Under the pieces are notes generated by a model that saw only the letters and a program-made list of their open reading frames with translations, did no database searches and had not been told where the DNA came from. A stretch of 64,000 bases of DNA from a virus (taxonomy: Duplodnaviria; Caudoviricetes): positions 1 to 64,000 of IMG/VR virus record IMGVR_UViG_2706795703_000001; one strand, written 5' to 3'. Both the position numbers and the translations under genes were made by a program. Below, piece by piece: positions 9,358 to 39,745 of the stretch; the stretch's first letter is position 1; each line of letters begins with the position of its first letter.

Positions 9358-11855
9358 TGTGGCCGCTGCCTGGTGAGGCGCTGAACCGAACCATCGAAGT
9401 GGAGGCGGGCATTGCCGACCTGTACGCCGAGGCCCTGAATACGTGGTGTCACGGGGCGCGCGCTGCGGTCCTGCCTGAGCTGCCGACCAGTGAAAACGAT
9501 GTTCTCACTGCTGCTGGGAGTTTGCCGCCTGAGCCTGGTTCTTCCGATGAAAACGCCGGGGTCTGGGACCAGCTATCGACTGAGCTGATCCTAGCAGGTG
9601 TGTCAACTCTGTGGGCGTTGTCGCTGGTAGAAGCAATGAATGGGATGGGTATTGACTTACCGAATATTGACCTGACCGGCCGTGATGCGCCGGTCATACC
9701 GTCTTCGGTTGCCCGTGCCATTACTTCGACTAGCGAAGTAGCTGTAGAAGAACTTCGAGCAGCGGTGGACACGGTCGAGTCGGTGCCTGCGCTGCGCCAG
9801 GCCCGCGACGACTACGTGGCTACCCAGCGCGAGGCGGTGGCAGCGGTACCGGCCGTGGTGCAGGACAAGGTCAGGGCAGCGGTGGACGCGGTCAAGGTGG
9901 ACGCCGCCCAGCATGACCCCATGCACGTGGACAACGACGTGCCGATTATCGAGGTCTACGTGACCCGCCAGCGCGAGGCAGCGGCGGCGGTGCTGACCCC
10001 GGGCAGCCCCGAGCTGCGCGACGTCGCGCGCAACGAGGGCTACCAGGCCGCCAGCATCCAGAACGCTGCGGTGGTGACCGCCGCCGCCCAGTCCGAGGAC
10101 GAGCTGGAGAAGGTCTGGATTGCCACCATTGACGGCAAGACCCGTCACACCCACTTCGCTGCCGACGGCCAGCGCGCACCCCTCGCCGGTAAATTCACCG
10201 TCGGTGCTGCCCTGCTGGAATTTCCGGCAGACCCCGCAGGCCCGGCGGCCGAGGTGAAGAACTGCCGTTGCCGGGTCGGCATCCTGGCACCGGACGAGGA
10301 GCTGCCTGACGAGGTCGACCGTCACACCGAGCGGCTGAATGGCCGCGACAGCGTGCAGGTCAACCGCAAGGGCAGCCAGGCCGACGAAATCCAGCGCCGG
10401 GCCAAGCAGGGCACGATCCGCGCCCGTGACGACGAGGACGGGGTAGGCCGCACGGCCAGCGCCGCACCAAGTGAACAGGAGTACGACATGCCCCAGCCCA
10501 CCCCGGCCGACACCGCTGCCGCCCTGGCCGCTGCTGCCGACGATGACGCGGCCGAGACCTTCCGCACCTTCACCGACCAGCCCATTGCGTTCGTCGGCGT
10601 GGAGACCAGCGACGGCCGGATGCTGGCCACCGACATCGAGTTCAGCGTGCGCACCCCGCCGCTGCCGATGATGTGGACCAAGCAGACCGGGTACGGCCAC
10701 GAGGACGCCTTCACCGTCGGGGTCATCGAGTCGGCCCGCGTCGACGGTGACACCGTGCGCGGGTCGGGCTACTGGCTGAACACCACCGAGGCCGACGAGG
10801 CGTTCAACGAAGCCAGCCACAAGGTCAGCCGCCCCAGCGTTGACCTGGCGCGCACCGAGTGGATGCTGGCCGACGAGGACGGCAAGGAAATCACCGAGGA
10901 GCAGTGGTGGGACATGCCGCCCGACGCCAAGGTGCTTCAGGTCATCACCGCCGGTGAGCTGATCGGGACCACCATGGTGGCCACCCCCGCCTTCGGCGAC
11001 ACCATGATCGAATTCAACGACGAGCGCGAGACCCGCGATGCTGCGCTGGTTGCCAGCGCCGCCGAGTCGTTCCGGCCCCGCGTCTACAAGGCCGAGCTGT
11101 TCGCGGACCCCCAGCTGTCGGGCCCGACGCTGCCAACCATGGACCCCGACACCGGCCGCATCTTCGGACACCTGGCCTGCTTCGGTGCCTGCCACCGCAG
11201 CATCCAGGCCGAATGCGTGGTGGCCCCGCGCAACGGCACCGACTACGACGAGTTCCACACCAGCCCGGCGGTGCAGCTGGACAACGGCACCCGCCTGGCC
11301 GTGGGACGGCTGACCGTCGGCACCGGCCACGCGCCCGACAGCCTGCGCGGTGGCCCAGCCCTGGCGCACTACGACAACACCGGCACCGCCTGGGCACTGG
11401 TCCACGTCTACGAAGATGCCCATGGCATTGCCTTCAGCGGCGTGGCTGCACCCTGGGCGACGGCCGAGCAGATCGAGGAGGGCCTGTCCAGCCCGCTGTC
11501 GGGCGACTGGCGCGACTTCGGCCGGGGCCTGAAGCTGATTGCCGCGCTGTCGGTCAATACCCCCGGCTTCGCCGTGCGCGGGCGCGAGGGCGACATGGGC
11601 CAGCCGGTCGCGTTGGTGGCCAGCCTGGGCCCCGACCCGCGCAAGCTGGCCGGGCAGCGTCAGGCGTTGGGGGCCAACGACATTGCCGACATCGTGGCCC
11701 GTGCCGTCACCACCGCCCTGGCCCAGCGCGACACCGACGCCGAGCTGGCGGTGCTGTTCGACCAGGCCGACGAGCAGCTGGGCCCGCTGCCGCAGCCGCT
11801 GACCCCCGACGAGGAAATCGACGCGCTGCTGGCCGACGCCGAGGCAGGTGCCTGA
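9351..11855 (+). CDS. MuF-like head morphogenesis domain fused to capsid maturation protease
   Basis: KVWIATIDGKTRHTH...FPADP...NCRCR is MuF-like; downstream GVETSDGR and PAF motifs are prohead-protease-like. Start could be ATG 9357. Confidence 0.8.
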   Translation: MLMWPLPGEALNRTIEVEAGIADLYAEALNTWCHGARAAVLPELPTSENDVLTAAGSLPPEPGSSDENAGVWDQLSTELILAGVSTLWALSLVEAMNGMGIDLPNIDLTGRDAPVIPSSVARAITSTSEVAVEELRAAVDTVESVPALRQARDDYVATQREAVAAVPAVVQDKVRAAVDAVKVDAAQHDPMHVDNDVPIIEVYVTRQREAAAAVLTPGSPELRDVARNEGYQAASIQNAAVVTAAAQSEDELEKVWIATIDGKTRHTHFAADGQRAPLAGKFTVGAALLEFPADPAGPAAEVKNCRCRVGILAPDEELPDEVDRHTERLNGRDSVQVNRKGSQADEIQRRAKQGTIRARDDEDGVGRTASAAPSEQEYDMPQPTPADTAAALAAAADDDAAETFRTFTDQPIAFVGVETSDGRMLATDIEFSVRTPPLPMMWTKQTGYGHEDAFTVGVIESARVDGDTVRGSGYWLNTTEADEAFNEASHKVSRPSVDLARTEWMLADEDGKEITEEQWWDMPPDAKVLQVITAGELIGTTMVATPAFGDTMIEFNDERETRDAALVASAAESFRPRVYKAELFADPQLSGPTLPTMDPDTGRIFGHLACFGACHRSIQAECVVAPRNGTDYDEFHTSPAVQLDNGTRLAVGRLTVGTGHAPDSLRGGPALAHYDNTGTAWALVHVYEDAHGIAFSGVAAPWATAEQIEEGLSSPLSGDWRDFGRGLKLIAALSVNTPGFAVRGREGDMGQPVALVASLGPDPRKLAGQRQALGANDIADIVARAVTTALAQRDTDAELAVLFDQADEQLGPLPQPLTPDEEIDALLADAEAGA

Positions 11856-12076
11856 TGTGCGGCTGCAACGGTGGCGCGGGCAGCGGCAACCGCAACGACA
11901 CCATCGGCTACTACGTCGTGCTGCCGGGCGGGGCCATGCTGCCCGACGGGGTCAACCCCACCGACCCTGCTGCTGGGGAGCCGCCGTACGCCTTCTACCA
12001 GGAGGCGCACAACCAGGTGGTACTGAACGGCGGGGGCACTGTGCGCCGCCTGCGCCGGGTGCCAGCAACCACCTAG
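11855..12076 (+). CDS. 73-aa hypothetical protein starting MCGC
   Basis: ATG overlaps the upstream stop (TGATG); C-terminal part of track ORF 11213..12076. Confidence 0.7.
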   Translation: MCGCNGGAGSGNRNDTIGYYVVLPGGAMLPDGVNPTDPAAGEPPYAFYQEAHNQVVLNGGGTVRRLRRVPATT

Positions 12077-12219
12077 CTAGGCGGCGACTTTGCGGCAGCG
12101 ATGCCGTTTGTTGCACACACCTTCGTTACTGTCGACCACCAGAGAGTTCCCGCCCGCGTTATGTACCGGGGGACGATCACCGAAAGCCATGTACGCGCTG
12201 CTTAGACAAGGAGTTCGCA

Positions 12220-14025
12220 GTGTTCGTCTCCCCCGCTCCGCATTACGGCGTGAGCTTCCGTGCCCGCAAGGTGGGCCAGTTCGACCACCAGATGCCTGCC
12301 ACGCTGCCGACCGACGCCGCCGCCCTGGCAACGCTGATCGCCAGCGCCGAAGCAGACATCAACGTCTACCGCGCCCGCCGTGGTGCAGGCGAGAAGCTGA
12401 CCGGCGCTGACGCCACCCGGCTGAAGTCGCTGCTGGCCGACGTCGGCACCCTGGCCGCCGCGCACGCCACCGCCGTGCTGGCCGATCAGGAGGCTGCCCC
12501 GGCTGACGAGGCTGAGCTGGACGCGCTGCTGAACCCGCCCGCTGACGAGGCCCCGGCCGACGAAGCGCCTGCGGACGAGGCACCGGCGGCCGACGACGAG
12601 GGCGACGCCCCCGCCGACGACGCCGACGCGCCAGCCGACGCCCCGGCTGTGCCGGTCGCTGCCAGCGCCACCCCGACCAACGGCACCCGCCCGGTCAACT
12701 TCAGCGCGGCCAATGGTGGCACCCCGCCCCCGGCTGGCAACGGCGAAGGCCCGACCCCCGGCTGGATCATGCAGCCCGGTGTCCCCGGGTACAAGGCCGG
12801 TCAGGACAAGGTCGGCTTCGCCCAGCTGGCCCGCCAGCTGGACACCATCCGGCCCGGCAGCCGGTCGGTGCGGGCCAACCGCCCCGACAAGCACATGGAC
12901 GGCCAGTCCTTCAGCGCCCAGGTCGTGTCGGCGCTGACCCGTGACATGCCGGTGGTGGACGACGCCCACGCGCTGGTCGCGGCCATCAACAAGGCCACCA
13001 GCGAGGTCAAGGGCGAGCGCGTCACGGCCGAGTCGCTGACGGCGGCCGGTGGCTGGTGCGCCCCGTCGGAGCAGCTGTATGACTTCTGTGACGTCCCCGA
13101 CGCCACCGACCTGCTCAGCCTGCCCGAAATCACCATCAATCGCGGTGGTGTGCGCTGGCCGCGTGAGCCCGATCTGTCCGGCATTTTCGAGGACTTCGAG
13201 TGGTTCTTCACCGAGCCGGAACTCGAGGCCGTCGACGGTGTCACGGGCTTGCCTACTGCCGTCAAGCAGTGCGTGGAAATCCCGTGCCCCGAGGACTTTG
13301 ACGAAATCCGCCTGAACGCCGTGGGCTGGTGCGTCGAAGCGGGCATCCTCCAGGAACAGGGCTGGCCGGAACTGATCGAGTGGTTCATGCGGTCGCTGAC
13401 CCAGGAGCACCTGCGGGCGCTGTCGCGCCGGTCGATCCTCAACATCGTCGCCGGGTCGGGTGCCGCCAAGGTCATCCCGCCCACGTCGGTCATGGGGTCG
13501 GTTGCGTCGGTGCTGAACAGCATTGCGCTGATGGCCACCAACATCCGGCTCAAGCGTGGTCTGTCGCGCACCGCCACCATCGAGGGCATCGCGCCGTCGT
13601 GGTTCTTCGAGGTGCTGCGCGCTGACCTGGCATTCCGCGAGGGCACCGACACGTTCGCCGTGTCGGACGCTCAGATCCTGGGCTGGCTGACCGCGCGCAA
13701 CATCGCGCTCCAGTTCGTCGGTGACTGGCAGACCCGTGGCGCGGGCCTGCCGGGCAACCTGGACACCCTGGTGTGGCCGTCCACCGTGCAGCTGGTGCTG
13801 TACCCGGCGGGTACCTGGTTCCGGTCGATGAGCAACGTCATTGAGCTGGGCGTCATGTACCCCAAGGAACAGCTCCAGGTCAACCGCTTCACGCGGATGT
13901 TCACCGAGGACGCCATTGCGGTGGGCAAGCGCTGCGGCGAGTCGGTCCTGGTGACCATCCCGCTGGACGTGACCGGTGCCATTGGCCAGCGCGAGTACCT
14001 GGCAGCCAATACGCCTGCACCGTAA
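12220..14025 (+). CDS. Major capsid protein (hexamer type) with acidic N-terminal extension
   Basis: AAGGAG RBS before GTG 12220; LTAAGGWCAPSEQLYD capsid motif; DEAPA x3 at 12544-12588. Confidence 0.85.
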   Translation: MFVSPAPHYGVSFRARKVGQFDHQMPATLPTDAAALATLIASAEADINVYRARRGAGEKLTGADATRLKSLLADVGTLAAAHATAVLADQEAAPADEAELDALLNPPADEAPADEAPADEAPAADDEGDAPADDADAPADAPAVPVAASATPTNGTRPVNFSAANGGTPPPAGNGEGPTPGWIMQPGVPGYKAGQDKVGFAQLARQLDTIRPGSRSVRANRPDKHMDGQSFSAQVVSALTRDMPVVDDAHALVAAINKATSEVKGERVTAESLTAAGGWCAPSEQLYDFCDVPDATDLLSLPEITINRGGVRWPREPDLSGIFEDFEWFFTEPELEAVDGVTGLPTAVKQCVEIPCPEDFDEIRLNAVGWCVEAGILQEQGWPELIEWFMRSLTQEHLRALSRRSILNIVAGSGAAKVIPPTSVMGSVASVLNSIALMATNIRLKRGLSRTATIEGIAPSWFFEVLRADLAFREGTDTFAVSDAQILGWLTARNIALQFVGDWQTRGAGLPGNLDTLVWPSTVQLVLYPAGTWFRSMSNVIELGVMYPKEQLQVNRFTRMFTEDAIAVGKRCGESVLVTIPLDVTGAIGQREYLAANTPAP

Positions 14026-17208: not shown

Positions 17209-18015
17209 ATGCCTGGCATCCAGCCCGTCAAGGGCCGCCGCCTTCGGGCTACTAAGATCAACGGCTGCGGTATGCCACTCGCTGGCCCCCGCAATCGCCT
17301 CGTCACCTCCGGCTACGTCAGCCTGACCTTGACCGCTGTCATGCGCGAGGCCCAGGACTTGACGCAGGACAACGCCGAGGGCAAGGAGTGCTACAGCGAC
17401 CGCACCCCGCCGGAGCGCCGCTGGTACACCCCGCAGCTGGAGCTGTGCAACGTCAACACCGGTCTGCTGACCATGTTCACCGGCTGGGAGAACGTGCTCA
17501 GTGCCGATGACCTGCCGGTCGGCTACCGCGACCAGAAGGAAATCGAGACCGACCTGGGCATTGCCCTGGAGCTGTGGACGGCGGGCAAGTCGGACGAGGA
17601 TTGCGACGACATCCCCACCACTGACGCCGCGTTCACCGCGCCCGGCACTGGCCGCAGCTTCGGCTACTTCCTGCTGGGTGGCACCGAGTGGACCCCCGGC
17701 GACATCACCATCGGGGCCACGGTGTCGACGTTCACCCTGACCGGCCGCACCATCGCCATGCCGTACTGGGGCAAGGGCCCCTACAACGTGCAGGAGGACG
17801 ACACCGGGGCGGCTGGTCGTCTGGTGACGCCGACCAGCAAGAAGGAGCACCTGACGGTGTTCCGCACCATGATTGCCCCGCCGGAGCCCACGCCGGGCAC
17901 CGAGCCGGTGCCGCTGGCGACCAACAGCCTGTTCGTCGCGCCGGACTTCTACTACGGCGGGCCGACCAGCGAGCCGCCCGCCGACGTGGCACCCGAGCAG
18001 CCTGCGATCCCGTAG
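17209..18015 (+). CDS. Major tail protein
   Basis: AGGAGG RBS before ATG 17209; RLRATKINGCG, QDNAEGKECY, LELCNVN motifs; strong terminator downstream. Confidence 0.8.
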   Translation: MPGIQPVKGRRLRATKINGCGMPLAGPRNRLVTSGYVSLTLTAVMREAQDLTQDNAEGKECYSDRTPPERRWYTPQLELCNVNTGLLTMFTGWENVLSADDLPVGYRDQKEIETDLGIALELWTAGKSDEDCDDIPTTDAAFTAPGTGRSFGYFLLGGTEWTPGDITIGATVSTFTLTGRTIAMPYWGKGPYNVQEDDTGAAGRLVTPTSKKEHLTVFRTMIAPPEPTPGTEPVPLATNSLFVAPDFYYGGPTSEPPADVAPEQPAIP

Positions 18016-19742: not shown

Positions 19743-20084
19743 ATGGCCAAGGTCACCATCGAAGGCAGCATCACCCCCAGCACTTTCCTGGCCCGGGGTG
19801 CGCGCGTGACGGTGCAGCGCACCGAACGGGTGGAGCGGCTGATCAAGGCCGGGTTCGTGGTCGAGGTGCCCGACGCGCGCACCGACACCGAGCGCGAGGC
19901 TGACGACCAGGCGCAGGCTGCCCGCGACGAGCTGGGGGTGCCCGCGCGCAACGCCAGCCGCGACGATTGGGCAGAGTTCCTGGCCAGCCACCCCACCGGC
20001 GGGTTCGTCACCGAGGGCAAGAACCGCGACCAGCTGATTGCCGAGTGGGACGCCTACGACGCCCCGGCCGACGCCGAGGAGTAG
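19743..20084 (+). CDS. Hypothetical protein
   Basis: GGAGGA RBS before ATG 19743; C-terminal part of track ORF 19341..20084. Confidence 0.7.
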   Translation: MAKVTIEGSITPSTFLARGARVTVQRTERVERLIKAGFVVEVPDARTDTEREADDQAQAARDELGVPARNASRDDWAEFLASHPTGGFVTEGKNRDQLIAEWDAYDAPADAEE

Positions 20085-20088
20085 ACCC

Positions 20089-20502
20089 ATGGCGGCCACC
20101 GTCCGCATCCACATCAACGAGCCCGAGCTGGAACGCCAGTCCGGTGCGATATTCCGTGGCAAGCACCGCAGCCTGACCCGCCGCATCGCCACCCAGGCGC
20201 GTGCCGACGTGCCCGTGCGCACCGGCAACCTGGGCCGGACCATCGGGGAGCTACCGCAGCGCTACCGGCCTTTCCACGTCGACGGTGGGGTGGAAGCCAC
20301 GGCCGACTACGCGGCGGCGGTGCATGAGGGCAGCCGTCCCCACCGCATCACCGCCCGCCACGCCAGCGCGCTGCGCTTCGTCTGGCACGGGCGCGTGGTC
20401 TTCCGCAAGTCGGTGTGGCACCCCGGGGTACGGTCGCGCCCGTTCCTGCGCAACGCCGCCCAGCGCATCGCGGCCACCGACCCCGACATTCGCATGACGT
20501 GA
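20089..20502 (+). CDS. HK97 gp10-like tail completion/neck protein
   Basis: VPVRTGNLGRTI, YAAAVHEG and RPFLRNA motifs; GAGGAG upstream. Confidence 0.65.
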   Translation: MAATVRIHINEPELERQSGAIFRGKHRSLTRRIATQARADVPVRTGNLGRTIGELPQRYRPFHVDGGVEATADYAAAVHEGSRPHRITARHASALRFVWHGRVVFRKSVWHPGVRSRPFLRNAAQRIAATDPDIRMT

Positions 20503-20563
20503 CTACCCCGACAACGCTGGTATTCTCGCGGCCGGAATACCCCATCGCCTCGGGAGGGCACCC

Positions 20564-21106
20564 ATGACCACGTTCGGACCAGAAGGCACCAAGATCACCC
20601 CGCAGGAGCCCGACGCCGCCCAGCTGGTGCCGCCTGCGGACTACTGCGCGCCGGACGACGACAAAGACCCGGCCCCCGATGACGGCCTGGTCGAAGTGAC
20701 CCGCGTGCTGTCGGAGGTCGACGCGGACAACGCCGACGTGACCGTGGTGGAGCCCGACGAGGCCCCCGGCAACGCGGTGGCGCTGATCGAGCGGTTCGAC
20801 GTCACCGCCACCGACGAGGTCTGGAAGTTCGACTTCCTAGAGTTCCAGGGCGACAAGCTGGGCATCCGGCTGCCGCAGCGTCAGGCGCTGGCGGCGTTCT
20901 CCCTGGCGTCCAGCAAGTACGTGGCCATGGGCGTCAAGAACGACCTGACGGGCCTGTTCATTGCCCGGCACCTGTCGCCGGAAAGCTACGGCCGGGTGTT
21001 CAGCCGCCTGATGGACCCCGACGATGCCGCCTACACCGTCGACACCGTGGGCGAGCTGTTCAACGCGATTGTTACCGCTGCCATTGACGCAGACGACGAG
21101 GATTAG
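20564..21106 (+). CDS. Tail assembly chaperone-like protein
   Basis: Directly before tape measure; GGGAGG RBS; acidic. Confidence 0.65.
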   Translation: MTTFGPEGTKITPQEPDAAQLVPPADYCAPDDDKDPAPDDGLVEVTRVLSEVDADNADVTVVEPDEAPGNAVALIERFDVTATDEVWKFDFLEFQGDKLGIRLPQRQALAAFSLASSKYVAMGVKNDLTGLFIARHLSPESYGRVFSRLMDPDDAAYTVDTVGELFNAIVTAAIDADDED

Positions 21107-21133: not shown

Positions 21134-24100
21134 GTGACCGATGTCGGCAAGATCAGCCTTGGCGTTGAAATACATGCCGATGACCTGACTGCCCAGCTCG
21201 GTGAGGCTGTCCGTCGGGCCGTGCTGCCCACGCTGGACAAGCTGAACCGCAAGCTAAACGAGGTCCAGCGAGAATATCGCAACACCGGCAACGCGGCTGA
21301 GCGCAGCGCCGACAAGCAGGTGCGCCAGCTGCGCCGCGTGGCAGCTGAGGCCAACGCCACCGCCGCCGCTGTACGGGCGGCCACCACTGCCGCCTACGGG
21401 GGCCCGCGCACCGGTGACCCCGTCCCGCGCATCGAACGCCAACGACGCTCTACCGACGGGCTGGCCACCAGCACCGCCCGGGTGGCCGCAGCCCAGGCCG
21501 ACCTGAACACGTCCATCGACATCTTCGGCCGCCGCAGCCCCCAGGTCATCGCCGCCCAGCAACGCCTTGACCGGCTACAGGCCGCCCACACCGCCCAGCT
21601 GATACGGGCGGCGTCGGAGTCGCGCGCCAGCACCAACACCCGGGTGCGCGACTACGAACGGTTGGCACGCGCGGCCGAGGAGTCCGCAGCCCGGCAGATG
21701 GCGGCCAACCGCGTCTCAGCTGGCGGCGGCGGTGCTGCCAATCGCGGCGGTGGCCGTCGCGGGGTGCTGGGATTCCTGACCGGCCCCACCGGGCTGAACA
21801 GCATTGCCCTGGGCGCGTCGGCGCTGCCCGCAGTGGCAACGGGCGTTGTCAACATCGTGGGCGCGGTGCAGCAGCTGGGCCAGGCCGGTCTGGCACTGCC
21901 CGGCATCTTCGCTGGCGGCGCGGCGTCCATCGGTACCGCCGTCATCGGCTTCAAGGGCCTGGGCGACGCGGTCAAGGAATTGAACGAGGCGGCCAAGTCC
22001 GGCGACTACACCAAGGCCAACGAGCTGCTGAAGGACATGGCACCGGCGGCGGGCGAGGTGGCGCGCGAGGTGTCGCGGCTGACCCAGGGCCCGCTGAAAG
22101 ACTTCCAGAAGGCCATTGCCCAGCCCATGCTGGCCGGTGTCGCCGGTGACCTGACGACGTTTACCGACAAGGTGCTGCCCCGCGCGCAGACCGGCATGGG
22201 CAAGGTGGCCACCGCGTGGAACGGCACGCTGAAGACGTTGCTGCGCGAGGGGTCCAGCGACAAAACGCTGTCGCTGATGGACCAGATTTTCGGCAACACC
22301 GCCGAGGGCCAGACCCGGGCCAACAACGCCATCAAGCCCCTGATCAGTGCGTTTGGCACCTTGGCCAAGGAGGGCAGCTATTTCCTGCCCCGGCTGGGCG
22401 ACGGCATTACCAAGGTCACCGAGCGCTTCGACAAGTTCATCCAGAAAAACACCGCCAACGGCAACATCTTCCGATGGATTGATGAGGGCCTGAACGGTAT
22501 GCGGGCGTTCGGCAACGCCATCCTCAACGTCTTCAAGACGATCACGGGGCTGACCAAGGCGGCGGGCGCACTGAACGGCAGCCTGTCCGGCGACGGCGGT
22601 TTCCTGGGCTGGCTGGAGCGGTCGACTAAGGCCATGTCTGACCTGACCAACAGCGCCGACGGCCAGGCCAAGCTGACCCGGTTCTTCCGCGACGGGCGCG
22701 AAGACCTCAACCGCTGGGGCGATCTGCTCAAGGACATTTGGCCTGCGCTTAAGCAGATCATTGAGGGTTTCCAGGCGTGGGGCGACATCATTTTCCCCGT
22801 CGTCAAGGCCCTGGGCAGCGTCGCCGGGGCACTGGGCGAAGTCCCGGGGCTACTCCAGTCCATCCTGGTGGGCTTCCTGGCCTGGCGCACCATCGGCGGC
22901 ATCGTCGGCGGCATCACCGGCAAGATCAAGGGCATGAACGCCGCCGCAGCTGCGGGCGGCGGGGCGGCCGGTGGCTTCGGTAAGGGCCAGGCGGCGCTGC
23001 TGGGCGGCAGCCTGCTGCTGTCGGGCACCACCATGCAGCGCAACGCGGGCACCAGCACCACCAGCGGCGTGCTGGGGGCCTTGCAGACCATCGGCGGCGG
23101 TGCAGTCCTGGGCGGCACCATCGGCAGCGTCATCCCCGGCGTCGGCACCGGCATAGGCGCGGTCGTCGGCGGCGTCGCAGGCGCGGCGCTGGCCGGGTAT
23201 AACGCCCTGGTCAACCAGAACAAGGTGGCCACCGAGGCGGCGGCAGCTGCGGCTGAGAAGTGGGCGGCGACCAACGAGCGCAGCCACCAGGCCATGCTGG
23301 TCAACAGCCAGGCGATCAAGTCGATGAACGATGCGCTGGCTGAGTCCGGCGGCAAGCTGGACGCCAATTCGCAGGCGGCGGTCGGCCAGCAGATCGACGC
23401 CATACCCGAGCGCCTGGCCGGGGCGTATGACGAGGCGACGCTGAAGGGCATTGCCACCGCCCTGGGCGACGTCAACATGACCACCGACCAGATGGCAGCG
23501 ACCATCACCGGCAGCCAGGCGCAGTTTGACGCGCTGACCGCGCGGCTGAACAACATGGGCCCGGCCGGACAGATCGCCGCCGCCCAGCTGGCCACCATCC
23601 GCGATAACACCCTGGGCGCTGCCCAGAACGCCAGCCTGGCCGCGCCGCTGCTACAACAGCTGTCCGACAAGTTCGGCGGGCTGGCCGGAGCCCAGGTGGC
23701 GGTGCAAAACGCCTTCGCCGCCATCCCCGAAGACGTACCGGTGAACATCAACATGCCCAACGGGCAGGCGGTGTTCGACATCCTCAAGGAAATCGGTGCC
23801 CAGATACAGGTCAACAAAGACGGCCTGATCAACGTCACCGCCCCGTTGGCCCCGTCGACGCTGGAGCAGCTGAAGGCGCTGGGCGTGCAGATTCAGCAGA
23901 ACAAAGACGGCACCATTGTGGTGCAGCTGGACCAGGCCCGTTACCAGGACACCATCGCCAAGCTGGGCACCGTCGGCCAGCTGTACGACGATCTGTTCCG
24001 CAAGTCCGGCGCGCTACCCCTGCCGCCGGTCCCCGGTCCCCAGCGCAACAACGCCGCCGACCCGTTCCAGCTACCCGGCGGTGCTGACGGCATGGTTGTG

Positions 24101-27100
24101 CCCGGCTACGCGCCCGGCCACGACATTGTCAACGCCGTGCTGGCCCCTGGCGAAGGCGTGCTCATCCCCGAGGCCGTGCGCGGGCTGGGTGGCCCGGCCG
24201 GGGTCTATGCCATCAACAGCCGCTACCGCAGCGGGCTGAGCAAGCGCTACTACGCCGACGGCGGCGTGCATGTCGGCAGCGGCGCGCTGCCCGGGCCGCC
24301 CGGCGGCGAGACCGAGCTGGGCGTGCTCATGCAGATTCGTGACCTGCTGGCGGGTAAGGGTGGCGTCGGCGCGGTGGCAGCGACCGCCAGCGCCACCGAC
24401 ACCATTGCCAAGGCCAGCACCGGCACCACCGGCCAGACCATGGGCCCCTTCGGTACACCGATCAAGGCGCGCAATCGCGGCTACGAGGCAGCGGCGGCAG
24501 CCATCCAGGCGCTCGGTGGTGACCCAGAGAAGTGGATCGGGGCCGACCCCACCACCTACATCGCCCCGACCGCCAGCGGCGCGCTGGGCGGCACTACGGC
24601 GGCATTGCCGGGCACCGTCGACATCGCCGCGCTCCAGAAGTTCGCACTGACCGGCAACACCGCCGACCTGCCGCCGGGGCTGTCGATGAATGACCCCGTC
24701 GTCACCGCCATTGTCGGGGCAAGGAACAAGAAGAAGGGACTGAGCGACCAGGCCATCAGTGACCTGGTCGGCCAGGGCCTGGCCCCCGGTGGCTTCACCG
24801 GCACGCTGGACTCCGACAACACCAGCCTGGTCAAGGCGCTGGAGCGGCTGCGCACCAAGGGCACCAAGGTGCCGGGCGGCACGGCAGCGGTGGCGGGGTC
24901 CACCGGCGTGCCCATGTACGGCATCCCTGCGGGTGTCATGGACCCCATCAGCGCCTACGCGCAGCAGCACACCGGCGGGCAGTACAGCTGGGGCAGCAGT
25001 GACCTGGCGGCCGGGCTGAGCGACTGTAGCGGCGCGGTCAGTGACCTGGTCGAAATCATCACCCAGGGTCAGGCCACCAGCAAGCGCCTGTTCAGCACCG
25101 CCGACGCGGGCAGTGTGCTGTCCAGCCTGGGCGCGGTGTCCGGCGCGGTGCCGGGCGCGCTTCAGATCGGCTGGTCAGCCGAGCACATGCGCGCCACGCT
25201 GCCCAACGGCGTGGCTTTCGAGTCCGGCGGCGGGACCGGCCAGGGTGCCACCTACGGCGGCAACGCCAAGGGTGCGGCCGGTATGCCGAACATCATGTCG
25301 CTGCCGGTCAACGGTGTGCCCCTGGGCGCGGGCATGTCCGGCGCACTGCCGGGCGGCGCAGCTGGCGGCGGCACCCCGGTGTTCGTCACGAACTGGCCCG
25401 GCCAGGGTCAGGCCCCGCCCGGGGTCAACGCGCTGCTGGGTGGGCTGGCCAGCGGTGGCGGCCAGGCGGCGCAGAACGTCCTGGGCGACGTCATGGGCGC
25501 GGTGGCCGGGGTCGGCCAGGAGGGCTGGGCGACCAAGGGCGCGACGTACGCCCAGCTGTCGCAGCTGACCAAGGAGGGCAACCCACTGGCGCTGGCCAAG
25601 GCGTTCGGCCTCAATGTCGAGGACTTCACGCGCCAGGGCGGTGCGGGTACCGACGTCGAGAAGAATGACCAGGCTTATGACGCCAGCGGTCGGCTGTTCA
25701 GCGACACGTCGGCGCTGTTCGACCGCACCCTGACCAGCCTTAACGCCCAGCTGGACGCCATGCGCCAGCAGATGGTCGACGTCATCGAGCAGGTCAGCCA
25801 GAAGCTGAACGACAGCGCACTGGAGCCGGTGGTCAAGGCGGGCGTGCAGTCGGCACTGGAGGGGCTGAAGGACAGCGTCAGCAGCGCCATCGGCACCGCC
25901 ATGGGCAACGCCGCCGCCCCGCCCATCGCGGAGGCGGTCAGCAGCGCGGTGTCCAGCCTGCCCATCGACAACAGCGGCGCGGGCAACGTCGGCGGCAACG
26001 CAGCAGGCGCGGTCACCGGCGTGCTCGGTATGGCCGCAGGCGGCGCGGTGTCCGGCGGCGTGGCAGGCAAAGACAGCGTTCCGGCCCTGCTGATGCCGGG
26101 CGAGTTTGTGCTGAACACCACCGACGTGGCCCGCATGGGTGGCACCGCCGGGGTGGAGGCTGCCCGGCGCAAGGGCTTTCGGCACTACGCCACCGGCGGC
26201 GGGGTCATCGGCAACGACACCGTCGGCGCGGAGTTCTTCGGGGTCAGTCAGGTGCCGATCATCGGTGCCATCGTCAACCTGCTGGTGCGGGTGCTGCTCC
26301 AGGTCATCGGTGTGCAGATCGAAGTACGCGACACCATGAACGAAATGTCGTCGGACTTCCGGCAGTTCCGTGGTGACGCCTTCCAGGCATTCGACGCCCA
26401 GGGCCGTCTGCTCAACGACACGTCGGGACTGATCGAGCGCACCAGCAGCAGCGAGGAAACCGCAGCTGAGGAGCGTATTCGCATCCTCAAAATCGTCATC
26501 CAGGCGCTTATCAAGTACATCATCGAGAAGGTCATCGTCCCCATTACCAAGGCGGTGGCCAACGCGGCTATCCAGGCCGGGGCGTCGGCAGCGGGTGCAG
26601 CGGTCAACACCCAGGCCCCCGGCGCTGGCGGCATCGTGTCCAGCCTGATCAGCAGCGCGGGCCAGGCCGGTGTCGACATCGCCGCCGAGGTCGGTACCGA
26701 CTTCGCCCTGGCCATCAGCGAGACCCTTATCGACATGGTGGGCGACCAGCTGCAATCGTCCTTCCCCGACCTGATGGCCGGGGTGTTCGGCGGCGGCGCG
26801 CTGGCGTCGATCTTCGATCCCGCCGGTGGTTTCCTGGGCACGCTGATCGGCGGTCTGCTGTCGGGCATCACCGCGATCTTCGGTGGCCTGTTCGGCGGCG
26901 CGTCCACCGTCATCCCCGGCACCCCGTTTGACGAGGGCGGCCTGGCCGTCGGCAAGGGCTATTTGCCCAAGGCAGTGGACGACGCCGAACTGGTGCTCAG
27001 CCCGACCGAGACCGACCTGTTCGGGCGGTTCGTGTCGGCGCTGGAGCGCGGCGGGTTTGGCGGCGGTGGCAGTCGCACCGTCCACGCCCCCATTACTGTG

Positions 27101-27163
27101 ATCGGCGGCGGCACCGACACCGCCGACGCGATTGAGAACCGCTTGCTCAAGCTGATGCCGTAG
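21134..27163 (+). CDS. Tape measure protein with internal NlpC/P60-like domain
   Basis: 2009 aa, Ala/Gly-rich helical; DVGKISLGV N-terminus; YSWG..DCSG..H segment at about 24940-25270. Confidence 0.92.
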   Translation: MTDVGKISLGVEIHADDLTAQLGEAVRRAVLPTLDKLNRKLNEVQREYRNTGNAAERSADKQVRQLRRVAAEANATAAAVRAATTAAYGGPRTGDPVPRIERQRRSTDGLATSTARVAAAQADLNTSIDIFGRRSPQVIAAQQRLDRLQAAHTAQLIRAASESRASTNTRVRDYERLARAAEESAARQMAANRVSAGGGGAANRGGGRRGVLGFLTGPTGLNSIALGASALPAVATGVVNIVGAVQQLGQAGLALPGIFAGGAASIGTAVIGFKGLGDAVKELNEAAKSGDYTKANELLKDMAPAAGEVAREVSRLTQGPLKDFQKAIAQPMLAGVAGDLTTFTDKVLPRAQTGMGKVATAWNGTLKTLLREGSSDKTLSLMDQIFGNTAEGQTRANNAIKPLISAFGTLAKEGSYFLPRLGDGITKVTERFDKFIQKNTANGNIFRWIDEGLNGMRAFGNAILNVFKTITGLTKAAGALNGSLSGDGGFLGWLERSTKAMSDLTNSADGQAKLTRFFRDGREDLNRWGDLLKDIWPALKQIIEGFQAWGDIIFPVVKALGSVAGALGEVPGLLQSILVGFLAWRTIGGIVGGITGKIKGMNAAAAAGGGAAGGFGKGQAALLGGSLLLSGTTMQRNAGTSTTSGVLGALQTIGGGAVLGGTIGSVIPGVGTGIGAVVGGVAGAALAGYNALVNQNKVATEAAAAAAEKWAATNERSHQAMLVNSQAIKSMNDALAESGGKLDANSQAAVGQQIDAIPERLAGAYDEATLKGIATALGDVNMTTDQMAATITGSQAQFDALTARLNNMGPAGQIAAAQLATIRDNTLGAAQNASLAAPLLQQLSDKFGGLAGAQVAVQNAFAAIPEDVPVNINMPNGQAVFDILKEIGAQIQVNKDGLINVTAPLAPSTLEQLKALGVQIQQNKDGTIVVQLDQARYQDTIAKLGTVGQLYDDLFRKSGALPLPPVPGPQRNNAADPFQLPGGADGMVVPGYAPGHDIVNAVLAPGEGVLIPEAVRGLGGPAGVYAINSRYRSGLSKRYYADGGVHVGSGALPGPPGGETELGVLMQIRDLLAGKGGVGAVAATASATDTIAKASTGTTGQTMGPFGTPIKARNRGYEAAAAAIQALGGDPEKWIGADPTTYIAPTASGALGGTTAALPGTVDIAALQKFALTGNTADLPPGLSMNDPVVTAIVGARNKKKGLSDQAISDLVGQGLAPGGFTGTLDSDNTSLVKALERLRTKGTKVPGGTAAVAGSTGVPMYGIPAGVMDPISAYAQQHTGGQYSWGSSDLAAGLSDCSGAVSDLVEIITQGQATSKRLFSTADAGSVLSSLGAVSGAVPGALQIGWSAEHMRATLPNGVAFESGGGTGQGATYGGNAKGAAGMPNIMSLPVNGVPLGAGMSGALPGGAAGGGTPVFVTNWPGQGQAPPGVNALLGGLASGGGQAAQNVLGDVMGAVAGVGQEGWATKGATYAQLSQLTKEGNPLALAKAFGLNVEDFTRQGGAGTDVEKNDQAYDASGRLFSDTSALFDRTLTSLNAQLDAMRQQMVDVIEQVSQKLNDSALEPVVKAGVQSALEGLKDSVSSAIGTAMGNAAAPPIAEAVSSAVSSLPIDNSGAGNVGGNAAGAVTGVLGMAAGGAVSGGVAGKDSVPALLMPGEFVLNTTDVARMGGTAGVEAARRKGFRHYATGGGVIGNDTVGAEFFGVSQVPIIGAIVNLLVRVLLQVIGVQIEVRDTMNEMSSDFRQFRGDAFQAFDAQGRLLNDTSGLIERTSSSEETAAEERIRILKIVIQALIKYIIEKVIVPITKAVANAAIQAGASAAGAAVNTQAPGAGGIVSSLISSAGQAGVDIAAEVGTDFALAISETLIDMVGDQLQSSFPDLMAGVFGGGALASIFDPAGGFLGTLIGGLLSGITAIFGGLFGGASTVIPGTPFDEGGLAVGKGYLPKAVDDAELVLSPTETDLFGRFVSALERGGFGGGGSRTVHAPITVIGGGTDTADAIENRLLKLMP

Positions 27164-35253: not shown

Positions 35254-35907
35254 GTGACCACGCCCAGCGTTTGCGTAGCGGAGAACCTGGTCGTCGGTGA
35301 CGACGGCAAGCTACGCCTGGCCCCGTGGTCGGTCCCGCGCAACGTCGTGGACATCCTGGCCCGCAGCGGCGCTGACACCACCAAGCTGCTGGAGACGTCG
35401 ACGCTGCCCGGCCGTCTACTCATCGACGTGCCGCCGGAGGCCGTGCTGTGGACCAACACCACCCCGGTGGACCACATGGTGCGCATCGTGGTCACCCGGC
35501 GCTGGAAGCGGTGGATCACCAGCAACCCGAACGCGGTGCAGTTCCGTGACCGCTGGTCTACCGCCGTCACCCCGGCGGGCAACGACGCGGTGATGCCTGC
35601 GGTGCCGGTGGTGTCGGGCATCTTCAACAGCCAATGCGGCAGCGCCGGTGACCTGGGCAGCAACACCGTGGCCGAGCCCGTGCCGGGCAAGTTCTGGGGC
35701 TGGTGGGGCACCAACGCCAGCGAGGAGTGGATAGAGCCGGTGGCCCCTGGTGACACCCTGCGCGTGGCCTACCGCTGCTATGTCTGGACCCCGCCACCCT
35801 TCAGCGACAACGCGAACAAGAACGCCCCCGCCCACGAGGCCGAGGCGGGCTACACCCGCATCCAGCTAACGGCCTTCCCCAAGCAGGGAAAGCTGGTGAC
35901 CGGATGA
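35254..35907 (+). CDS. Minor tail-region protein (paralog 1 of 3)
   Basis: TAAGCT 6 nt before GTG; shares motifs with the next two ORFs. Confidence 0.65.
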   Translation: MTTPSVCVAENLVVGDDGKLRLAPWSVPRNVVDILARSGADTTKLLETSTLPGRLLIDVPPEAVLWTNTTPVDHMVRIVVTRRWKRWITSNPNAVQFRDRWSTAVTPAGNDAVMPAVPVVSGIFNSQCGSAGDLGSNTVAEPVPGKFWGWWGTNASEEWIEPVAPGDTLRVAYRCYVWTPPPFSDNANKNAPAHEAEAGYTRIQLTAFPKQGKLVTG

Positions 35908-36506
35908 CCAGCCTGAAGCTATGCACCGCCGAATACATGCTCAGCGACGTGCGCGGCGTCGGCGTACGCAACACCTGGCTGCCCCAGGTCATAGCCGAGC
36001 AGTTCCTGGAGTCCACGAAGGACGGCGAGATAAAGCTGTCCCCCGACCCGGTGACCATGATTGACGGCGATTTGACCTGGTACAACAACAGCCCCGACCG
36101 GGTGCGGGTGTGGGTGCTGGTCCACCGGGCACCCCGCAGCATCGTGGCGCAGAACCCGGCCACCGTGGTCATCCACGACGCTTGGGCCCACCAGGTCGGT
36201 AAGTCCCCCAGCGCGGACTACCCCAGCGTCATGCAGGACACTTTCGGCGGGCGCTTGCAGGTGGACCGCGCCAGCGTGGCCAAGGACTTGCTCCAGTTCG
36301 GTCGGTTCTTCCTCGACGGTGACGACAGCCAGACCTACGTCGATCTGGGTGTGGTGCCGCCTTATCAGTCGTTCCACTTCCGTTACCTGGCCGCTGTCCA
36401 GACCCCGGGCGTCTGGACACAGCCCAGCGAGTTCGAGCCGCGCTGGGAGGCATACGCGCGGTGGACCCGGTTGGTGGCCCTTGGCAGCCCGGTGGGGGCG
36501 CTGTGA
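35904..36506 (+). CDS. Minor tail-region protein (paralog 2 of 3)
   Basis: ATGA overlap; WYNNSP..V..HR motif. Confidence 0.65.
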   Translation: MTSLKLCTAEYMLSDVRGVGVRNTWLPQVIAEQFLESTKDGEIKLSPDPVTMIDGDLTWYNNSPDRVRVWVLVHRAPRSIVAQNPATVVIHDAWAHQVGKSPSADYPSVMQDTFGGRLQVDRASVAKDLLQFGRFFLDGDDSQTYVDLGVVPPYQSFHFRYLAAVQTPGVWTQPSEFEPRWEAYARWTRLVALGSPVGAL

Positions 36507-37255
36507 GCGATTGCGTAGACGAGACACACCTGCAAGAGCTGGACGGGGTCATCAGCCCCCAGCCGTGGATGCAGTGGCGGCACGTCGGCGGCGTGGAGGC
36601 CCCCAGCAAAACGGGCAACTACAACGTCACCATGACGTCAGGCGGCCTGGGCACCGTCGACGTCTTCGGCACCATCGGCAGCCTGTTCGGCAGCCTGTTC
36701 TCGTCCATCCCACTGCTGTTCGGCAAGTCGTCGCCGCTGGCCGGGCTGCTGGCGTCGGCCAGCGCGGGCGGCAACAAAAACGACCTGCTGCACGCGCTTC
36801 AGCTGAGCTGGACCAACGGCAGCCCCGTGGCCCAGGACGTCTACGGGCTGATCACGCGCGGCGGTGCGCGGGTCAGCCTTCAGCCGCGCAGCCGGGGCGG
36901 GCTGGTGCTGCGCAGCGGCTACGCCAAGCACGCCAGTGACCCCGGCACCCTGACCGACAGCTCCATGTTCGGCGTCGGTGCCGACCTGGGGCGCGGCGGG
37001 ACACTGAGCCTGGGGACGACCTACGGCGTGGCCGAGCACCGCATGAACAGCGTGACCATCCCGCTGGCACCGGAGCGCACCGGCTGGCTGCGCCTGGCCC
37101 CCGGTGAGACCATCACCGCCGCCCTGGAGCTGCGCTTTATCAGCGAGTTCTGGGAAAACACCACCATCGACGGCGGCGACACCGGCAGCGAGTCGAGCTA
37201 CACCACCGGCGCAACGCGCCTGGACCTGTTCGCGGTACCGGTAATCTCTGGGTGA
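36503..37255 (+). CDS. Minor tail-region protein (paralog 3 of 3)
   Basis: GTGA overlap at 36503; WTNGSP..V..TR motif. Confidence 0.65.
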   Translation: MSDCVDETHLQELDGVISPQPWMQWRHVGGVEAPSKTGNYNVTMTSGGLGTVDVFGTIGSLFGSLFSSIPLLFGKSSPLAGLLASASAGGNKNDLLHALQLSWTNGSPVAQDVYGLITRGGARVSLQPRSRGGLVLRSGYAKHASDPGTLTDSSMFGVGADLGRGGTLSLGTTYGVAEHRMNSVTIPLAPERTGWLRLAPGETITAALELRFISEFWENTTIDGGDTGSESSYTTGATRLDLFAVPVISG

Positions 37256-37282
37256 CTACCCCTCCGGCCTCGGGAGACTGCC

Positions 37283-37645
37283 TTGCTGTACGAACCGCCC
37301 CCAGGGTTTGACGATTGCGAGGCTGACGCCGACGCAGCCCCGACGCCTGCCAGCTGGCCGTACCACGAACTGGAGGTCGAGGGGGTGGGCACGCTGCACG
37401 CCCGGCGACCACTGCCCAACGCCATCCCCAACCTAGCCGGGGCTGCGCGGGCCAAGATCAAGCCCCAGGCGCGCATCGACCACCTGGACCTGTTCGTGCA
37501 GAACCACCTGGCCGAGGGCGAGTTCGAGACGCTGCTGGCGCGCATGATGACCGAGGACGACATGCCGCCGGACGCCATGCTGCGGGTCAGCCGCGCGATT
37601 GCGACGGCGGGCACTGCCCGCCCTACACGGCGGTCATCTACCTAG
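37283..37645 (+). CDS. Tail assembly chaperone-like protein (G part), paralog of 20564..21106
   Basis: GGGAG RBS before TTG; aligns by eye to 20564 ORF (LEVEG/LEFQG, LFVQNHL/LFIARHL, RMMTEDD/RLMDPDD). Confidence 0.6.
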   Translation: MLYEPPPGFDDCEADADAAPTPASWPYHELEVEGVGTLHARRPLPNAIPNLAGAARAKIKPQARIDHLDLFVQNHLAEGEFETLLARMMTEDDMPPDAMLRVSRAIATAGTARPTRRSST

Positions 37646-37962
37646 CGTTGATGGCCGCGCACAATTGGCGGGCGTTGCGCACCCGCGCGTGGGAGAAGGG
37701 CCACGACAACCTGATGGGTGCCCCGACCATGCACGTGGTGCTCGACGCCATGGAGCAGTTGGGGCTGGAGTCGGCAATGTCGGGCGTCAAGTCCAACGCT
37801 GAAGCCCAGTCGGCCATGGCGTCGTTCTATGCCAAGCTGTACCGCCCCGACCCCACGGCATACAAGGTCAACGGCGAGGGCTATATGCCGCCACCGCCCG
37901 GGTTCAGCGACGAGGAAATGGAAGCGTCGTTTGACGCCTTCCTGTCCAGCGGGGCACGGTAA
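37621..37962 (+). CDS. Probable -1 frameshift extension (T part) of the 37283 chaperone
   Basis: -1 frame is open from before 37561; reads PYTAVIYLALMAAHNWRALR...; no RBS before TTG 37648. Confidence 0.5.
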   Translation, partial: PYTAVIYLALMAAHNWRALRTRAWEKGHDNLMGAPTMHVVLDAMEQLGLESAMSGVKSNAEAQSAMASFYAKLYRPDPTAYKVNGEGYMPPPPGFSDEEMEASFDAFLSSGAR

Positions 37963-38009
37963 CCACCGCTAAACACCGCTGGGGACGGCTGGGCAGCTAT
38001 CCTGCACCC

Positions 38010-38429
38010 ATGGCTATAACGACGGTGCTGATGGATACCAGCGCTCCGTCGGGCTCAAAGCTGGACCCCGCTTTCGCTGCCGAGGTCGCGGCGGTAGCCC
38101 CAGGCAACATCGAGCCGGGCGAAGTCGACACCATCCACCTGGCTGACGAGTCGGTCACCAGACCCAAGATCGCCCCAGGGGCCGTAGACAGCCCCCAGAT
38201 TGCCACCGGCGGCGTGAAGGCGGTCAACGTGGCCGCCGGTGCCGTCGGCACGCCCGCGCTGGCTGACGGGGCCGTGACAGCCGCCAAGGCCGGGGTGGGC
38301 GTGGTCACCGCCTACGACAGCGCAGGCAACCCTGTCACGCGCAAGGAGGTGGAGGTGACCACGGCGCAGTACAACGCGCTGGTCACCGCTGGGACGGTCG
38401 ACCCGAACACCCGGTACTTCGTCAGCTGA
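38010..38429 (+). CDS. Tail-region protein with AVT/GAV-type short repeats
   Basis: TATCCT 6 nt before ATG; ends TAQYNAL...DPNTRYFVS. Confidence 0.7.
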   Translation: MAITTVLMDTSAPSGSKLDPAFAAEVAAVAPGNIEPGEVDTIHLADESVTRPKIAPGAVDSPQIATGGVKAVNVAAGAVGTPALADGAVTAAKAGVGVVTAYDSAGNPVTRKEVEVTTAQYNALVTAGTVDPNTRYFVS

Positions 38430-39565
38430 TGCCGGTCTACCAGGGCGCGGCCAACCACCCGGCGTTCACGCGGTGCTACGTCGGCACCCAGCGCTACCGC
38501 AAAATCTACGACGGCACCACACTGGTGTGGTCCGACACCGCCATCCACGACGGGTTCGACTGGGACGGCTGGCTGCAAGGCTGGATTAACGAGCTGTGCA
38601 GCGCCGAGGACTTGGGCGAGCTGATCAGCGACGGCTACGGCATGATCGTGGACGGCCTGGGCAACGTCGTCGGTTCGACCGTGGCCTACATTCAGGACGG
38701 CGTGAACGAGACGGGCAAGCTGGTGGCCAACGCGGGCACCAGCCTGGTGGATGCATACTGCGGGGCCTGGGGCGGCAGCGCGCCGCCGGACGGGCTCATC
38801 GGCCTGGTGAACGGCATTCCGATCATCGGCGGCATCCTGGCCGACTGGCTGGCCGGGGACATCGACATCGAAAGCATCATCGGCAGCCTGCCGGTCATCG
38901 GCAATATCGCCAAGCAGATCGGCCTGTTGCCCGACAGCGCCGGGCACCTGCTGGACCCGCTGAACTACGTCATTGACGAGCTGGGCAACGTGGTCGGGAC
39001 ACTGACCTGCGGCAAGTACACCAACATCGGCGGCGGCATAGGCGAGGACATCTGCTACGTCATCGGCGTGGTCGAGCAGGCGGCGCGGCTGCTGGTCCCC
39101 GACGGCCTGATGTCGCTGGACCAGCGCATCAGCCGGGTGCGGCACCCCACCACGCTGACAGCTGATGACGGGTGGCTGGAAGTGCAGATCGCCAACAGCG
39201 GCAGCCCCGGCTTCAGCACCCAGGTCTTCCGGCGCTACGCCAACGACGGCAGCGGGGCGCGCGGCGTGGGCATGGACTTCACCGACAACGCGGCGTCGAT
39301 TGTGCGGCGCGTCGGCGGCGTCGACGCGCTGGTGGGCCCCAACATCTGCCGCTACACCGAGGGCGACGTGCTGACCATCGACCAGACGGGCAACCTGCAC
39401 ACCTTGCTGCTGAATGGCACCGACGTAGGGCAGTGGGACGATAGCGGCGCTACGGCGGCGTCAGGTGCCTCAAACCGCTCTGTGGGCATGGTCATGCAAG
39501 GGGCCAAGGAATTTCTTGGCTCCCGGCGCTTCAGCCCGGCGCTGAATTACCTTGACGCTGGCTAG
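38429..39565 (+). CDS. Minor tail-like protein
   Basis: TGATG overlap; N-terminus MPVYQG..YVG..IYDGTTLVW; C-terminal beta-sandwich-like region. Confidence 0.65.
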   Translation: MPVYQGAANHPAFTRCYVGTQRYRKIYDGTTLVWSDTAIHDGFDWDGWLQGWINELCSAEDLGELISDGYGMIVDGLGNVVGSTVAYIQDGVNETGKLVANAGTSLVDAYCGAWGGSAPPDGLIGLVNGIPIIGGILADWLAGDIDIESIIGSLPVIGNIAKQIGLLPDSAGHLLDPLNYVIDELGNVVGTLTCGKYTNIGGGIGEDICYVIGVVEQAARLLVPDGLMSLDQRISRVRHPTTLTADDGWLEVQIANSGSPGFSTQVFRRYANDGSGARGVGMDFTDNAASIVRRVGGVDALVGPNICRYTEGDVLTIDQTGNLHTLLLNGTDVGQWDDSGATAASGASNRSVGMVMQGAKEFLGSRRFSPALNYLDAG

Positions 39566-39745
39566 CTCGCGGCTGTCGCGGTAGCGCAGCCAGGACCATA
39601 TACCGATCAATCCGGCCCCGGCGGCGGCGGTCACACCGGGGTGCGGATTGACGGTGAAAAACGACACGGCGAGCAACAGCGTTCCAGTTCCACCCATGAG
39701 GGCGACAGTAACGGGTCGGCTGTCGCGGCGCGCGTGCCTGGTCAT
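39470..39745 (-). CDS. Small membrane protein
   Basis: ATG 39745 overlaps upstream TAA; two hydrophobic segments; 3' end overlaps the convergent + strand gene by 96 nt. Confidence 0.5.
   Translation of the reverse strand: MTRHARRDSRPVTVALMGGTGTLLLAVSFFTVNPHPGVTAAAGAGLIGIWSWLRYRDSRELASVKVIQRRAEAPGAKKFLGPLHDHAHRAV

Follow-up and report, generated by a model that had tools for sequence, protein, structure and literature searches.

Introduction

Programmed frameshifting in tail chaperone genes is textbook knowledge. The lambda gpG/gpGT pair, and the conserved frameshift of this kind in the chaperone genes of long-tailed phages, were reportedly described by Levin, Hendrix and Casjens in 1993 and by Xu, Hendrix and Duda in 2004 (reference 52 of PMC3029335). 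To our knowledge the lambda frameshift needs no downstream hairpin. The Escherichia coli dnaX gene undergoes a -1 frameshift on A-AAA-AAG, in which both tRNAs re-pair, and has an upstream Shine-Dalgarno-like element. Shifting on a proline codon is also said to occur in phage structural genes: Zimmer et al. reportedly found in 2003 that the Listeria phage PSA uses +1 frameshifts on CCC-UGA in its capsid and major tail genes.

The cluster B mycobacteriophages have repeatedly been reported as an exception to the near-universal tail chaperone frameshift, and in the papers on B1 and B4 phages no such frameshift was found (PMC8248883, PMC12352053, PMC10793310). Here we describe, in a 64,000-nucleotide stretch of a related phage genome (the window), two adjacent reading frames, ORF1 and ORF2, which on comparative sequence evidence are probably the halves of one chaperone gene expressed by programmed -1 ribosomal frameshifting.

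The locus resembles lambda G/GT in having an upstream ORF of a chaperone family, a downstream ORF in the -1 frame without start signals of its own, a short zero-frame tail after the shift site and an arrangement conserved across many phages; short and long products with a common N-terminus are predicted here as well. Unlike lambda G/GT, it lies 16.5 kb past the usual site, at the distal end of the tail genes, and the usual site is held by a non-shifting paralogue; its own site is C-CCU and not G-GGA-AAG, a conserved hairpin follows it, and in roughly half of the relatives the fusion is in frame and permanent. With dnaX it would share the bacterial -1 shift, the stable hairpin a few nucleotides downstream and the two products per gene, but here only tRNA-Pro would re-pair and the junction sequences contain no conserved upstream element. 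The proposed slip of a single tRNA-Pro on a proline codon of a phage structural gene is reminiscent of PSA, where, in contrast, the shift is +1, takes place at a stop codon and concerns the capsid and major tail protein genes.

Results

Two chaperone genes in one tail gene block

The window makes up the right-hand 64 kb of a ~72-kb phage genome with a G+C content of 68-70%. Among deposited genomes it is closest to mycobacteriophages of cluster B, genus Coopervirus (85.7% identity over 36400-39600). The structural genes run rightward in the order major head, major tail, chaperone, tape measure, minor tail genes, ORF1/ORF2:

11848-14025, rightward: major head gene
17209-18015, rightward: major tail gene
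20564..21106, + strand: paralogous chaperone at the usual site, no frameshift partner (PF23781, E 1e-38; phrog_1118 'tail assembly chaperone')
21134..27163, + strand: tape measure protein gene, 2009 aa (ORF list; the position agrees with the annotated Mao1 and Sour tape measure genes)
37267..37276, + strand: leader motif GCCTCGGGAG including the ribosome-binding site; second copy at 20547-20556
37283..37645, + strand: ORF1, 120 aa, G-like tail assembly chaperone, zero-frame product (Pfam, PHROG and structure matches)
37648..37962, + strand: ORF2 as usually annotated, 104 aa, DUF7240, proposed T-like C-terminal domain (Pfam, PHROG)

On the 3' side ORF1/ORF2 are followed by a small tail fibre gene and then by a minor tail gene, and the gene context is shared by Mao1, Sour and StAugustine. 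The pair is thus not in the canonical G/GT slot between the major tail and tape measure genes but downstream of it, past the minor tail genes. A first-pass annotation, made from the sequence of the window alone, had described ORF1/ORF2 as a G/GT pair displaced by about 16 kb. The distance was correct, but the pair is better described as a second paralogue, because a chaperone gene of the same family still precedes the tape measure gene.

This usual-site gene ends 28 nt before the tape measure gene. Its product shows 26% identity to that of ORF1 (E 4e-6), and the two genes have in common the PF23781 domain and a leader with GCCTCGGGAG. The usual-site protein differs from ORF1 in its N-terminal extension of ~70 aa and in having no GTARP end motif, no -1 partner and no DUF7240. 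Near the 3' end of the usual-site gene no alternative frame is open, both frames being closed, so a frameshift is not possible there; the absence of a frameshift at this place, suspected in the first pass, agrees with the cluster B papers cited above. The motif GCCTCGGGAG has only two exact copies in the window, one ahead of each chaperone gene, and belongs to a region of similarity that extends over ~45 nt upstream of both genes (GGTA-TCTC ... TACCCC ... GCCTCGGGAG). The shared leader suggests common transcriptional or translational control of the two chaperone genes.

The genes gp25/gp26 of the Gordonia phage Sour (L079 10894-11639) are annotated as a 'tail assembly chaperone' frameshift joining a small protein and a tail-completion-type protein (phrog_5). 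The homologues in the window (~19750-20084 and 20089-20502) look like ordinary adjacent, separate genes. Because of this, and because the second part is of the phrog_5 type, the annotated Sour frameshift is probably not a true G/GT.

Domains and reading frames of ORF1 and ORF2

ORF1 starts with TTG, has GGGAG 6 nt upstream and ends in ..GTARPTRRSST-TAG. Residues 3-114 of its 120 match Pfam PF23781, Phage_TAC_16 (E 3.6e-42; 143 bits against a cut-off of 27), which bears out its earlier assignment to a tail chaperone family, and the protein also matches phrog_915 (E 8e-55). The Phage_TAC_16 profile terminates at Pro114, the proposed slip codon. ORF2 matches PF23888, DUF7240 (E 3e-40; 137 bits against a cut-off of 27), a domain recognised in all 57 members of the ORF2 alignment (A7). 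The two domains, both above the curated Pfam cut-offs, follow each other in the order PF23781, PF23888, and a fused relative, P0001, has both. One PHROG profile, phrog_941 (233 positions), spans the two ORFs, with ORF1 matching positions 2-117 and ORF2 positions 126-228; the 8-position gap equals the eight -1-frame codons between the CCT and the start of ORF2.

Three features define the junction:

37619..37627, + strand: proposed shift site CGC-CCT-ACA with the core C-CCT at 37621-37624 (invariant in split forms)
37624..37647, + strand: eight -1-frame codons, YTAVIYLA, translatable only after a shift (no upstream start; match to fused proteins)
37630..37658, + strand: conserved RNA hairpin, 5' arm 37630-37641, loop 37642-37646, 3' arm 37647-37658 (RNAalifold on 13 sequences)

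ORF2 is in the -1 frame relative to ORF1, and in a fusion its reading would begin at 37624. Open from 37327 onwards, the -1 frame crosses the junction as ..PPYTAVIYLALMAAHNW.., and the coordinates and frames given in the first pass are correct. At 68% G+C an open off-frame is by itself uninformative (here the -1 frame is open across nearly all of ORF1), therefore the case rests on the comparison with relatives. In the window the stop codon of ORF1 and the candidate starts of ORF2 are 2-5 nt apart. The -1 frame of the window lacks ATG, GTG and TTG codons between the stop at 37324-37326 and TTG 37648, and no purine-rich Shine-Dalgarno sequence is present upstream of TTG 37648 or ATG 37651, in line with the earlier remark that ORF2 has no start signals of its own. 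A slip at CCT 37622-37624 would yield a protein of 114 + 112 = 226 aa, which is the size estimated before. The predicted tryptic peptide of the junction is AIATAGTARPYTAVIYLALMAAHNWR for the fusion and AIATAGTARPTR for the zero frame.

Fused and split relatives

A search for longer relatives of ORF2 led to P0001, a protein of 222 aa with the junction ..GTARPYSAVIQLALMAAHNW.. When P0001 was scored against 1.84 billion cluster representatives, 150 relatives were obtained, of which 91, ORF1 of the window included, were classified. Counted as representatives of 50%-identity clusters, 44 of the 91 are fused (~200-240 aa) and 47 are split. Mao1 gp33 and StAugustine gp43 are likewise single fused ORFs, and the metagenomic relatives P0117 and P0151 have N-terminal extensions.

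All 47 split representatives break after the same Pro of GTARP-Y and continue as RP-T, RP-I, RP-F or RP-S, which is the outcome expected when a Tyr or Phe codon follows a Pro codon that has lost its wobble base. In each of the split relatives inspected, ORF2 lies in the -1 frame. In the tree of the N-terminal domain the fused and split states interleave; parsimony requires 15 changes of state, and at least five are forced by well-supported branches. Random fission into two independent proteins would not be expected to recur at one codon only, in the most conserved motif. More than 500 phage genomes contain an intact ORF2 under purifying selection, at identities as low as 32%, and in every database record sampled two separate genes are annotated, both as 'hypothetical protein'. 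The existence of fused-only relatives means that the short form cannot be essential everywhere, and to this extent the strict analogy with G/GT is weakened.

The AlphaFold model of a fused relative, built from 41 sequences, has a pLDDT of 93, a pTM of 0.83 and an ordered junction. A helix comprising residues 115-127 begins at the junction, and the start of ORF2 falls in the middle of it, so that in terms of the model a restart at the ORF2 Met would truncate a confidently predicted helix. The top three solved structures matching the N-terminal domain of the model (VIA-align) are chaperones, with Z scores of only 5-7: 3fgx (Z 6.9), YqbN 3klu (Z 5.0) and the HK97 tail assembly chaperone 2ob9 (Z 5.0). 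As a whole, the fused model matches BFVD entries over their full length that bear the name 'tail assembly chaperone', and whose lengths (194-283 aa) suggest fused GT products; a Foldseek search against the PDB gave no match at E <= 0.001. ORF2 alone has a poor model in the ESM Atlas (pLDDT 0.46, obtained by a method not strictly comparable with the AlphaFold model of the fused protein) and only sub-threshold leads there, Phage_Gp15 (0.88) and DUF5361 (0.83). No chain among the listed solved-structure matches covers DUF7240 convincingly, and the T-like role of this domain draws no support from any solved structure. Relaxed Pfam scans of the 57 members found nothing besides DUF7240 and Phage_TAC_16.

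The proposed shift site

The DNA of the split forms was compared in 36 distinct sequences from several cluster B subgroups, Gordonia Sourvirus phages, prophage-like contigs and metagenomic contigs. All 36 junctions read CGC-CCT-A. The 11 distinct fused junctions consist of CGC, CGG, CGA or AGG, followed by CCC, CCA or CCG and then by TAC, TAT or CAT; they contain one base more than the split junctions, thus the split form is the fused form minus the wobble base of the Pro codon. The step from CCT to CCC, named as the shift point in the first pass, is located exactly where split and fused relatives differ by this one base. The C before CCT, which lets tRNA-Pro re-pair with CCC, is fixed in the split forms only.

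Conservation of the open -1 overlap in relatives had been set beforehand as a test on which the frameshift should stand or fall, and none of the 36 distinct split sequences has a stop in it. Past CCT the zero-frame tail varies in sequence (TRR.., TPP.., TVP.., TQP.. or an immediate stop) and in length (1-25 codons); in the Suigeneris group it is T-stop. The -1 frame after CCT keeps Y-x-A-V-I-x-L-A with synonymous changes, and it is this segment of the fused proteins to which YTAVIYLA of the window corresponds. The numbers of variable columns at the three codon positions are 2, 1 and 5 in the -1 frame, as compared with 1, 5 and 3 in the zero frame. This pattern indicates that the -1 frame is already coding, over eight conserved codons, before any start codon is reached. 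Lineages with a Trp codon have a -1-frame GTG or ATG six codons upstream of the Tyr, from which an ORF2 with the conserved segment could be initiated.

The site was rightly called non-canonical in the first pass: neither C-CGC-CCT nor C-CCT-ACA conforms to the heptamer X-XXY-YYZ. A P-site tRNA-Arg on CGC is unable to re-pair in the -1 frame, only tRNA-Pro can do so. C-CCT occurs in frame nine times in other structural genes of the window, thus the tetranucleotide alone is not prohibitively shifty, and it is only weakly avoided (9 of 42 CCT codons are preceded by C, as against 112 of 238 CCC codons). A G-rich stretch 10 nt upstream was considered as a Shine-Dalgarno-like stimulator and rejected: it consists of Gly or Trp-Gly codons, and it is absent from some split lineages, which have GCA-GGC.

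The conserved hairpin

The stem of the hairpin is 9-12 bp long. Stimulatory stem-loops are looked for 5-9 nt after a shift site, together with covariation; here the stem begins 5 nt past CCT, and in the 36 distinct sequences 97% of the cells are paired. The covariation score is 0.275 as compared with 0.087 in shuffled alignments (none of 500 reaches 0.275), and it does not exceed 0.045 if one arm is slid by 1-3 columns. Both partners vary in four of the pairs. At pair 17-41, 18 sequences have CG and 18 have GC, a swap brought about by matching synonymous changes in two Ala codons. When synonymous codons were shuffled with the protein kept, the split sequences had a mean z of -2.48 and were negative in 36 of 36 cases, whereas the median z of the fused sequences was 0.06. 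Some fused forms still have the stem (Mao1, z -3.0; three others, z -1.3 to -1.9); the strong hairpin in Mao1-type fused genes may be left over from a split form that was given up only recently.

In the window the 3' arm includes both candidate starts of ORF2 (TTG 37648-37650 and ATG 37651-37653) and the loop includes the ORF1 stop, TAG 37643-37645. The stem always begins 5 nt past CCT, while the ORF1 stop and the possible starts of ORF2 are placed differently from lineage to lineage: the stop precedes the stem in the Suigeneris group, where it is 21 nt ahead of the ATG, and is located in the loop in the window; Sour has it in the 5' arm, and most cluster B phages have it in the 3' arm. That the hairpin is in register with CCT and not with the stop or start codons is more in keeping with a frameshift stimulator than with a device for coupling alone. 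If CCU occupied the A site, the stem would begin at about +12 from the first base of the P site, which would be the usual geometry. The first-pass annotation had proposed the shift; the hairpin 5 nt downstream and the in-frame fused relatives, which constitute the strongest evidence for it, had escaped its notice.

Discussion

The results described above can be accommodated in the following model. Most ribosomes would translate ORF1 in the zero frame as far as TAG 37643 and release the 120-aa G-like chaperone. In a fraction of cases the tRNA-Pro on CCU 37622-37624 would slip by -1 and re-pair with CCC 37621-37623, the next codon read would be UAC 37624-37626, and the product would be the 226-aa fusion with the junction ..TARP-YTAV.., carrying DUF7240. 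The hairpin 37630-37658 would most likely pause the ribosome and promote the slip. On the comparative side the model builds on the position of the junction, the apparent -1 coding before the start of ORF2, the invariance of C-CCT, the covariation of the hairpin and the natural fusions; that the slip takes place in the cell, and its efficiency, we infer from these data. By analogy with lambda G/GT, the pair would act in tail assembly, DUF7240 would be the T-like part missing from the usual-site chaperone, and the long form would bring this extra domain to the assembling tail.

The main rival is a serious alternative: ORF1 and ORF2 might be two separate proteins, made by translational coupling, whose domains associate with no covalent link; ribosomes reaching the end of ORF1 would open the hairpin and initiate anew at TTG 37648 or ATG 37651. 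The layout is suggestive of this. In most relatives the ORF1 stop overlaps an ATG (TGATG) or a GTG (GTGA), the few nucleotides between stop and starts in the window would also suit a restart, the 3' arm of the hairpin buries the ORF2 start as in classic coupling, and the database records sampled list two genes. Coupling does not explain, however, why eight -1-frame codons that precede the start are conserved with third-position variation when no start codon lies upstream of them, nor why every split, over at least five independent switches, is at the same Pro in the most conserved motif and not in a linker. Moreover, the hairpin register follows CCT instead of the stop and start, as is evident from the Suigeneris group, and a restart would cut the modelled helix. 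On balance we regard coupling as unlikely, though clearly ahead of the two explanations considered below.

The same fused protein, with the same need for a C before CCT, would be obtained if RNA polymerase stuttered on the C run at GCCCGCCCT and added a base, so that some of the transcripts encoded the in-frame fusion. Known transcriptional slippage needs runs of about seven or more identical bases, whereas the run here has only three C's, and stuttering leaves a conserved downstream hairpin at ribosome-pausing distance unexplained; we consider this explanation very improbable. Even less credible is gene decay, in which a one-base deletion would have inactivated a fused chaperone gene and left ORF2 as an untranslated remnant. 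The split form is indeed the fused form minus a single base, but an untranslated remnant would not be expected to stay intact and under purifying selection in so many and such divergent genomes, to be represented by 47 split clusters or to be free of stops in every -1 overlap. Programmed -1 frameshifting thus remains the reading that we think probable.

Building on the frameshift, a wider interpretation can be proposed, to which we give slightly less than an even chance. The Pro codon may have switched at least five, perhaps 15 or more times between an in-frame codon and a C-CCU slip site with hairpin, and the phages may set the proportion of short and long chaperone by gaining or losing the single base. 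The frameshifted paralogue of cluster B and related phages might then provide in trans the T-like function that the usual gene lacks.

In a literature search no paper was found that mentions DUF7240, PF23888 or PF23781, and cluster B is not discussed in the PRFect paper. Neither the searchable literature nor the sampled annotations contained a frameshift in a second paralogue, a site made up of C-CCU and a hairpin, or switching between fused and shifted forms. What is new here is the second, distal paralogue, the single-tRNA site consisting of C-CCU and a hairpin, its presence in phages described as having no frameshift, and the repeated switching between the fused and shifted states. Few groups of sequenced mycobacteriophages are as large as cluster B. 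If the proposed frameshift is real, these phages do have it, only in another gene, and more than 500 deposited genomes need re-annotation. It would also add a non-canonical bacterial -1 site, a single tRNA-Pro slip with a hairpin, in high-G+C hosts. Close relatives which differ only in having a fused or a frameshifted site would be a natural experiment on the purpose of a two-form chaperone.

Two further observations concern other genes of the tail block. Directly upstream of ORF1 there are three tandem paralogues of the phrog_282 family (35254-35907, 35904-36506 and 36461-37255) with overlapping stop and start codons, the third of which is DUF7172. Among the relatives of the major tail protein (17209-18015) there are two classes of length, ~266-270 aa and ~355-369 aa; many metagenomic relatives have a C-terminal extension of ~95 aa, which the protein of the window lacks.
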